Below, piece after piece: positions 6,001-9,000 of a DNA stretch of 25,133 nt (the stretch's first letter is position 1; the number at the start of each line of letters is the position of its first letter). The position numbers are program-made. Source of the DNA: a virus (Duplodnaviria > Heunggongvirae > Uroviricota > Caudoviricetes); the IMG/VR virus record IMGVR_UViG_2529293240_000009, positions 1-25,133 of that record. One strand, written 5' to 3'.

Positions 6001-9000
6001 TGGGATCGCGCGTGTTTTTTACTGCACTCTGACAGGGAAACGCATCATCATGCTGCATAGTTTTGTAAAGAAAACGCAGAAAACACCGCCAGCCGAACGC
6101 AAGAAAGCTGAAACCAGAATGAAGGAGGTTAAGCATGACTGGTAAACGCACTCTCCCCACCATGACACACGACGAAATGGCAGCCAAATGGATGGAAGAC
6201 CCGGCTTTTAAAGCAGAATACGACGCTATCGCTGACGAATTCGCACTGCTTGATGAAATGCTGGCAGCACGCAAAGAAGCTGGCTTAACTCAGGCTGAAG
6301 TTGCCGAGCGAATGGGAACAAAAGCGACCGCGATCACCAGAATGGAAAGTAATCTCGCATCAGGTATCAGCGGCCCATCATTTGCCACCCTAAAAAAATT
6401 CGCCCGCGCTACTGGAAAAAAACTCCAGATCCGCTTCGTTTAACCACACCGCGCCGTCATTCTGGCGGCGCACCGGATAAATAGTCATTTCCTCGCACGA
6501 TGTCTTAGCCACCGGATATCCCACAGGTGAGCCGTGTAGTTGAAGGTTTTTACGTCAGATTCTTTTGGGATTGGCTTGCGTTTATTTCTGGAGCGTTTCG
6601 TTGGAAGGTATTTGCAGTTTTCACAGATTATGTCGGTAATACTTCGTCGCTGTCGCCTCATGCCGCCCTCCCTGTTCGTTGTGACCATTCATACTCTCGC
6701 CGGGAGTTATCACTCCACCGCACGTTGCGCTCTGAGCCGAACCAGAACATGATTTCGATAAGCTCAGTCATGCTGGCCTTTCGCATTTTGCTGGTACGCA
6801 CGCCAAGCATGACAACGCCACCGCCGATACCAGGCGCACTTCGTTGCTCCAGTTTTTTGGTCTTAAGCCACAGGGCAGTGAACAGGTCTTTCCAGTCTTC
6901 CGGCGCCAGCCGTTGACCATGCCATAGCACCTGACGCGAAACATCGTTCAGCATCGGCCACATACGGTCATTCTGCGCTTTGCTGCGTTTGGGTTCTCTA
7001 ACGTGGACTTCGTGGGGTGACTTGTCGTCGATGGGTAGTGAGAGAATGGCGTCTATGGCGTTATTTCTGATTGCTTCGTTGCGAAGCAGGAATAATTGCT
7101 TCACTTGCCCTCCTGCTCTTCTCCTTGCGCTTATCCGCGTAATACCGGTTTAATTCGTCAGACATCTTCTCTCCGATAAGCGGCCATGACTCAAACCTCG
7201 CATTCGCAAAATTCTCAAGCCATTTCGCAAAATCATCCAATTTATCTGCTAACCAATAAACAAAATATGACAGCCATACTGCTGAAGCCAAAAAGATACG
7301 ATGCGGATTAAGGATGAAAATAAGCGATATTTTCATTCCTCGTGATACTTTGCTCATGCTCACTCCTTCACTTTAAATCCAGACTCCGGATAATTCTGTC
7401 ACACTGAAAATCATTATCGATTTTAACCAACCGGCGAAGAACGCGGTCACGCGGATAGCTCCGTGGCTTAGGGGCGTTTTTCTGTCTCTCGCCAGTCGGA
7501 AGTCTGGAAGCAGACCAGTACCGCTTTGCACGACCAATGTTCTCCTGAAAGTCGGCGCGGACAAGCTCAGTCAACGAACTCATTTCTTAAAACCTCCTCA
7601 AACGTATTCTGACGCATTTTTCATTCTCGCTGCTATATAAATACCTTGTACGCGTTTACCTCGCTACAGAGCGATTGTGATGCCTTAAAAGCGATTTATT
7701 GAAGTGATATTTGCTTAATCGAAATTCTTTTCTTTGATTCCTGCGGCCCTGATGGCTTTCATTACTGCAATTACCGTTTTGTCACGCCCATCCTCATAAC
7801 CCATCGCATAAGCACCTTCTTCACCATCTTTCCAAAAGTCGTCATTCGATTCGGGCCAGTCGATATCCAGTTCAATAGCAGAGCGCGATGCCTGCCATAT
7901 CACCCAGGCAAACTCTTTTAATTCATCGTCTCCTGTGAACTGGTTTTTGTCTTTTGACCACCAGTTTTCAAACTGTCGGTAGCTATCGTTCACTTCCCTC
8001 TCCCCCAAATAAAAAGGCCTGCGATTACCAGCAGGCCTGTTACAAGCTCAGTGATGTAGATGGTCATCAGAATCCTCCTTTCTTCTTGGACTGCGGTTCC
8101 TCGCGTTCACGTCGGCGCATTTCAGCAGACTGTTGGTCTGTGTCATAAATAGCGCCATTTGCCTGAATGCAATACACCGTGCCGGTATTGCCATGACGAT
8201 TGAGACGAAGGATTAGTTCGGTTTCACCAGGTGGAACACTGTCATCAAAAGCACCTTCACGATGGATCCCCACCCAATAATCGCAATCCTGTTCAATCTG
8301 CCCTGTATCTCGTGAGTCACTTGGTAATGGGCGTTTATTGGTTCGGCTTTCCAGTGCGCGGTTAAGCTGCGTCAGAAGCACAACAACGCAATCAAGCTCT
8401 TTGGCAAGGTTCTTCAGTCCTTTGGTGATCATGCCGTAGGCAAGGTTCTTCAGTCCTTTGGTGATCATGCCGTAGGCAAGGTCGTTGCGATCGGCCTTTT
8501 CAGCGGTCATTAGTGTCAGGTCATCGACCAGAATCATGCCAACACATCCTTTTTCTCGCTTGATTCGACGGCTTTCGCTGACGATTTGAGCCAGAAATAA
8601 TCCCGGCGTGTCGTCGATGTAAAGCAGGTCGATTTCACTCAAGCGATTGGCTGTTTCGATCGCCCTGTTGAAGTCACCATCGTAATCACCCTGATAGCCG
8701 TCATCGGCGTCATTTGTCGCCGGAAGGTAAAAAATATTCGGGTTAACACCAGACTTCTGCCCTACCAGTTTTTCCAGTATCTGATCACCTGGCATTTCAA
8801 GGCTGAACATCAGAGCGGGCTTTTTCTCATGCACTGCGCAGTTGATTGCCATCTGGCTGTATAGCGTCGTTTTCCCCATCTTAGGGCGAGCGCCAATGAC
8901 AAACAGAGAGCCTTTCACCAGACCTTTCGGTGACAGCATCCTGTCCAGCGATGGGATCCCTGTGCTCATTCCTCGTTGTTCGCCTGACGGGTCAAAACGC

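Follow-up and report, generated by a model that had tools for sequence, protein, structure and literature searches.

The DnaB-family helicase gene of a tailed-phage sequence (Caudoviricetes; IMG/VR record IMGVR_UViG_2529293240_000009) contains a stretch of 36 bp that occurs twice in tandem, which raises the question whether the second copy is really present in the bacterial DNA, how and when it was gained, and whether it matters for the protein. The window analysed here is the whole stretch of 25,133 nucleotides, positions 1 to 25,133 of that record. The reading reached, held with a probability of about 0.88, is that of a genuine, lineage-specific, in-frame tandem duplication which most likely arose by slippage and was fixed neutrally during the decay of a prophage.

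When the window sequence was compared directly, the 36-mers at 8405-8440 and 8441-8476 (CAAGGTTCTTCAGTCCTTTGGTGATCATGCCGTAGG) were found to be exactly identical. Tandem Repeats Finder (TRF) reported the array at 8403-8482, with a period of 36, 2.2 copies, 100% matches and a score of 160, as the repeat identity runs past the 36-mer pair by 2 nt on the left and 6 nt on the right. The chance expectation for a perfect adjacent 36-mer repeat is about 4^-36 per site, therefore the repeat is not a product of chance. The plus strand of the window reads across the array as CTCTTT GGCAAGGT TCTTCAGTCCTTTGGTGATCATGCCGTA GGCAAGGT TCTTCAGTCCTTTGGTGATCATGCCGTA GGCAAGGT CGTTGCG. The 8-bp motif GGCAAGGT, which makes up the extra 0.2 copy, starts at 8403, 8439 and 8475. 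Its second occurrence (8439-8446) lies at the copy-to-copy junction, that is, the novel joint, and its third (8475-8482) ends the array on the right, at the end position given by TRF; the first one spans 8403-8410. The copies stand head-to-tail, are perfect and are joined without filler DNA, as is expected for a slipped-strand duplication.

The repeat is in frame within the minus-strand ORF 8067-9554, and the duplicated protein reads ADRND-LAYGMITKGLKN-LAYGMITKGLKN-LAKELDCVVVLLTQLNR. In the 490-aa protein, copy 1 (8405-8440, minus strand, in the phase chosen by the first-pass annotation) spans residues about 366-377, one LAYGMITKGLKN/AYGMITKGLKNL unit, and copy 2 (8441-8476, minus strand) spans residues about 354-365. 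The first-pass annotation had described a perfect 36-bp in-frame tandem inside a prophage helicase, and its coordinates, peptide, reading frame and helicase identity were all found to be correct on the basis of 36-mer identity, TRF, the ORF and Pfam.

The gene that carries the array (8067-9539, minus strand) encodes a phage DnaB-family replicative helicase, the "P" of replication modules of the HK022/Stx-phage type. The product has 490 aa from the ATG at 9539, or 495 aa from an alternative GTG at 9554, while its relatives have 478 or 483 aa. No exact match to the 495-aa form was found, the deposited proteins beginning at the internal ATG. In the 495-aa form, PF00772 (DnaB N-terminal domain, E = 3.5e-31) covers residues 13-117 and PF03796 (DnaB_C, RecA-like, E = 7.9e-56) covers residues 195-462. 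The NCBIfam model TIGR03600 (phage replicative helicase, DnaB family) scored 574.2 bits, above its curated cutoff of 498.65, whereas the cellular DnaB model TIGR00665 reached 315.9 bits, below its cutoff of 385.25, which places the protein in the phage subgroup. The PHROG match was phrog_19, "DnaB-like replicative helicase". The invariant columns are retained at GARPKMGKT 216-224 (Walker A), TQLNR 390-394 (H3) and N447-R448-H449-G450 (Arg-finger region).

By an exact protein match, the window was identified as contig AFOW01000032.1 of assembly GCA_000217895.2, from J1713, a strain of Shigella flexneri (PMC6397287). The same 80-bp array is present base for base in CP100042.1 (locus L003), the closed chromosome of S. 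flexneri J17B, which was sequenced with PacBio RS II and Illumina HiSeq 4000, and in AAVAPZ010000164.1 (L005), a contig of an unrelated surveillance draft. J17B is the archetype strain of S. flexneri serotype 3a and belongs to phylogroup PG4. At least four accessions from S. flexneri contain the 490-aa product with the duplication. A comparison over 19.5 kb showed 2 substitutions and 13 one-base gaps between the window and J17B, the gaps being mostly located in homopolymers, and L005 matches J17B at 100% identity across 6,559 bp. J1713 and J17B are the same or nearly the same strain, separately sequenced on different platforms, and they count as independent sequencing and not as independent lineages. 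The two names might even denote a single strain, B having been misread as 13 on transcription, although this is a guess. The one-base gaps of the window break ORFs of insertion sequences (e.g. 3174-3991 and 10604-11800) and look like draft sequencing errors.

The surrounding locus is a lambdoid prophage remnant next to yfaA/gyrA, as judged from its gene content. The gene order is yfaL' - ubiG - gyrA - yfaA - DUF1175 gene - integrase fragment - IS4 - IS3-family IS - O - helicase, and it continues beyond the helicase with ninB/ninE, a Gp49/HTH toxin-antitoxin-like pair, two antirepressor-type genes, IS fragments and tail-fibre fragments. In comparison with intact related phages, no cI/cro/cII region, lysis module or head genes were found in the locus. 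The replication initiator gene O (9529-10416, minus strand) is a pseudogene in the duplicated lineage, in which a CAG to TAG change (Q122*) at 10048-10050 on the minus strand splits it into ORFs of 122 and 169 aa; both halves match PHROG 345, "replication initiation O-like". An IS3-family element (approximately 10604-11800, minus strand), recognized by its HTH_Tnp_1 and rve domains and by gene-order comparison, lies upstream of O at a distance of about 190 bp and occupies the place of cII/cro/cI and the rightward promoter region of related phages. An IS4 copy (12042-13467, end approximate, plus strand; DDE_Tnp_1 and Nterm_IS4 domains, repeat family D1) follows between this element and the integrase fragment, which sits beside IS4 at the border of prophage and chromosome. 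The general decay of the prophage, put forward in the first-pass annotation, is borne out by the IS insertions, the nonsense codon in O and the integrase fragment.

Several other features of the region were recorded. The toxin-antitoxin-like pair, at about 5816-6443 of the window (13097-13724 of locus L004), consists of a Gp49 (HigB-like toxin) gene and an HTH_3 antitoxin-like gene, with ninE on one side and the antirepressor genes on the other. In J17B the remnant has, at its far end (L003, 19284-21047), an ipaH-type effector gene of 587 aa with LRR_TTSS and NEL E3-ligase domains, and it looks like one of the "ipaH islands" of Shigella. The corresponding end of the window (1-262) holds a fragment, an 86-residue gene without domain match, whose ipaH identity is suggested by its position only. 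The pseudogene of the autotransporter yfaL consists of ORFs of 842 and 292 aa (20200-23703 and 23721-25133) and is cut by a second IS4 copy that reaches the contig end and is identical to the first one from 12042 onward. A 12-bp micro-tandem of two units, GAATGCTGATGA, detected by TRF at 13263-13286 and at 24942-24965, is part of the two IS4 copies.

The ancestral state of the helicase gene was then evaluated. In all 87 phage matches the gene was covered in two pieces, with a span in the record 36 bp below that of the query, and the E. coli matches listed behaved likewise; since the BLAST searches with a 126-bp segment and with the whole gene merge overlapping pieces, duplications in lower-ranked matches are not excludable from these spans. 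For this reason a 36-mer that exists only at the junction (8423-8458), and of which single-copy DNA can match no more than 26 nt, was used instead. Neither 5,426 complete E. coli genomes nor 50,697 phage records contained it; a control 36-mer from neighbouring sequence matched 76 records. A junction 30-mer was likewise without match in the GTDB species representatives, IMG/VR and JGI metagenome contigs, a result that is uninformative on Shigella strains. GTDB merges Shigella into E. coli, and presumably few or no Shigella stand among its species representatives.

At the protein level, none of the best 120 protein cluster representatives has a length of 490 aa, and the 12 inserted residues correspond to gaps in every one of the 51 homologues aligned from this set, down to 73% identity. 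Length variation that occurs naturally in the family was considered and rejected as an explanation, since in the homologues of about 817 aa the extra length comes from an intein-type insert located away from the site of the duplication. These phage DnaB-like helicases of about 817-821 aa (P0025, P0026, P0067, P0072, P0086 and P0104) apparently contain an intein; the query coverage was 54% in one alignment, and two of them matched LAGLIDADG_3 (PF14528).

S. flexneri also has an allele that lacks the 12 residues and is identical at all other residues, located on contigs L006 and L007, so that parent and product allele are both present in one species. Contig L006 (6,523 bp) is 36 bp shorter than the duplicated L005 (6,559 bp) and otherwise differs from it by 3 SNPs. 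O carries Q122* in the window, J17B and L005, whereas it is intact, with 294 aa, in L006. A difference of 3 SNPs in 6.5 kb indicates that the duplication is very recent, as the first-pass annotation had proposed from the identity of the two copies. Its expectation that a single copy is ancestral was also confirmed, with the second copy in none of the 51 homologues, all 87 phage matches 36 bp shorter, and the junction absent from E. coli and phage records.

Two other accounts of these data deserve consideration. The first-pass annotation had left room for an assembly or sequencing artefact, the second copy then being absent from the bacterial DNA, and the window is indeed an older draft with many one-base homopolymer discrepancies against J17B, that is, an assembly that is not error-free. 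However, these discrepancies are one-base gaps, mostly in homopolymers, and not 36-bp duplications, and the identical 80-bp array was recovered in three separately produced assemblies, among them a closed PacBio plus Illumina chromosome and a separate surveillance draft. Moreover, draft L005 resolves two copies while draft L006 resolves one and differs at 3 SNPs, so the copy number tracks the lineage and not the assembler. An artefact is thus refuted and effectively excluded, its residual chance being minute, and the array in the draft contig can be trusted as a sequence feature. Somewhat less remote, although still very unlikely, is that two copies are ancestral in the Shigella prophage and that the single-copy contigs result from secondary two-to-one slippage deletions or from collapsed short-read assemblies. 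Perfect tandem repeats delete readily, and the S. flexneri lineages compared here are not rooted by a genome-wide tree. Against this account, every outgroup (phages, E. coli, Salmonella, Klebsiella and the other homologues) is single-copy, and the single-copy S. flexneri keeps codon Q122 of O while the duplicated lineage has the derived stop. As the outgroups are single-copy and the O stop is derived, parsimony puts both derived states on one branch.

The anatomy of the junction suggests how the second copy was gained. Slipped-strand misalignment between short direct repeats is the basis of the Streisinger, Albertini and Lovett models. In the single-copy S. flexneri contigs L006 and L007, GGCAAGGT brackets the 36-bp unit at both ends; the whole helicase gene has just one other pair of direct 8-mer repeats within 60 nt of each other. 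In the alleles of E. coli and the phages the repeat is 7 bp long (GCAAGGT), owing to a synonymous A/G difference. In the product allele, exactly one GGCAAGGT stands at the novel joint. Replication would have been misaligned between the two GGCAAGGT direct repeats, exactly 36 bp apart in the single-copy allele, and the slippage would have yielded the second copy in frame, doubling 12 residues of the helicase. Slipped-strand duplication is, on this anatomy, the most likely mechanism. A hairpin or quasi-palindrome promoting the slippage was considered and rejected: the DNA of the ancestral 57-mer folds no better than its shuffles (z about -0.6 on both strands).

The consequence for the protein was evaluated by alignment and modelling. 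Aligned to E. coli DnaB, the insert falls between N356 and R357, opposite a gap, after the strand of the Walker B residue D343 and before S383-QLNR387 (H3). In the AlphaFold2 (AF2) model of a single-copy relative, strands 335-339 and 373-378 enclose an 18-residue helix (353-370), of which L354-N365 make up the first 12 residues. The duplicated protein was modelled with its first copy largely as coil, at pLDDT values of 39-53 where the single-copy control has 68-69, and the best regions of the model lie on either side of this dip. The mean pLDDT was low for both models (54 for the duplicated and 64.5 for the single-copy protein), so the local structure and the pLDDT contrast are indicative only. 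The models are consistent with an insert that doubles the first 12 residues of the alpha-helix joining the Walker-B strand to the H3 (TQLNR) strand. The uninterrupted helix that is typical of the family between Walker B and H3 is not retained, the 12-residue insert being absent from all 51 homologues. It is plausible, as the first-pass annotation suggested, that the duplication impairs the helicase.

A second lesion was found close to the array. Codon 340 (8520-8522, minus strand) is GAC (Asp), while the relatives have TAC (Tyr), and the resulting Y340D substitution directly follows the Walker-B residue Asp339, which is kept (VDYL to VDDL). Tyr occupies this position in each of the 51 homologues, and the codon is TAC in the nearest alleles from E. 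coli and phages; in E. coli DnaB, D343-Y344 align to positions 339-340. It is the only departure of the query from the columns conserved in at least 90% of the homologues, and it means that the intact Walker B, a hydrophobic strand followed by D-Y-L, is not preserved in the window helicase. The single-copy S. flexneri allele also has Y340D, so the substitution did not result from the duplication and probably represents an inactivating lesion of its own. Helicase function appears to have been lost, although the ORF is open and the other catalytic motifs are intact, and a residual or altered activity may persist.

The state of the whole module bears on the question whether the duplication was selected. 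The IS elements at the promoter and immunity region, the nonsense codon in O and Y340D suggest that the replication module was already non-functional before the duplication. What is left would be a helicase without its initiator protein, probably without its native promoter, and with a damaged ATPase motif. The duplication would then have been fixed neutrally as one more scar of prophage decay. Neutral fixation is the most likely outcome and the duplication is probably without phenotype.

The opposite view, a functional variant under selection, for instance one that interferes with the replication of superinfecting lambdoid phages or that acts as a copy-number switch, could draw on the ORF still being open at 490 aa with an in-frame change, and on the preservation of Walker A, the Walker-B Asp, H3 and the Arg finger. 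However, an open ORF over such a short time is expected under neutrality as well, the native promoter region upstream is gone, O is a pseudogene, and the allele occurs only in a few genomes that are nearly identical. As for a switch, only one or two copies were observed, and a unit whose length is divisible by 3 gives no on/off switching; the locus does not behave as a contingency (phase-variable) locus, as the 36-bp unit keeps the frame. Selection is in consequence highly improbable. More improbable still would be that the doubly altered helicase (Y340D plus the 12-residue duplication) is kept because it still oligomerises and poisons the hexamers of superinfecting lambdoid phages as a dominant-negative barrier. 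If this were true, the helicase remnant would be a prophage-encoded superinfection barrier against phages with the same replication module.

The event carries little biological weight, being a textbook microhomology-mediated tandem duplication inside a decaying prophage. Its use is of another kind. The 36-bp junction can serve as a clean marker of the J17B-like lineage of S. flexneri 3a. In addition, "intact" ORFs in Shigella prophage remnants may hide inactivating in-frame lesions which annotation pipelines do not flag.

Among known systems, the closest counterparts of the helicase are the "P" proteins of the Stx2-converting phage 86, VT2-Sakai and HK630, whose genes have 98.5-98.7% nucleotide identity over the whole length and whose products share the same domain architecture and motifs. 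The phage 86 orthologue (1452 bp, 483 aa) has the same start and stop and lies between O and the nin genes. In comparison with these proteins, the window allele has the 12 extra residues and the substitutions M305L, S315F and Y340D, and, unlike them, it sits in a remnant without cI/cro/cII, lysis module and head genes. E. coli DnaB (PDB 6BBM/6QEL and others) is alignable over residues 6-457 (E = 1e-77) and has in common with the window helicase Walker A, the Walker B Asp, H3 (SQLNR/TQLNR) and the Arg-finger region.

No description of this helicase allele was found, while the mutation itself is a standard short-homology tandem duplication and not new in kind. Short-homology tandem duplications in bacteria are likewise head-to-tail and without filler, with a unit bounded by a direct repeat in the parent and with one repeat copy at the novel joint, and nothing is mechanistically different here. 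A recent example is given by the in-frame repeat-mediated insertions in blaKPC (PMC12593533). The insertions described there are selected by antibiotics, whereas the prophage helicase gene analysed here appears to be under no selection.
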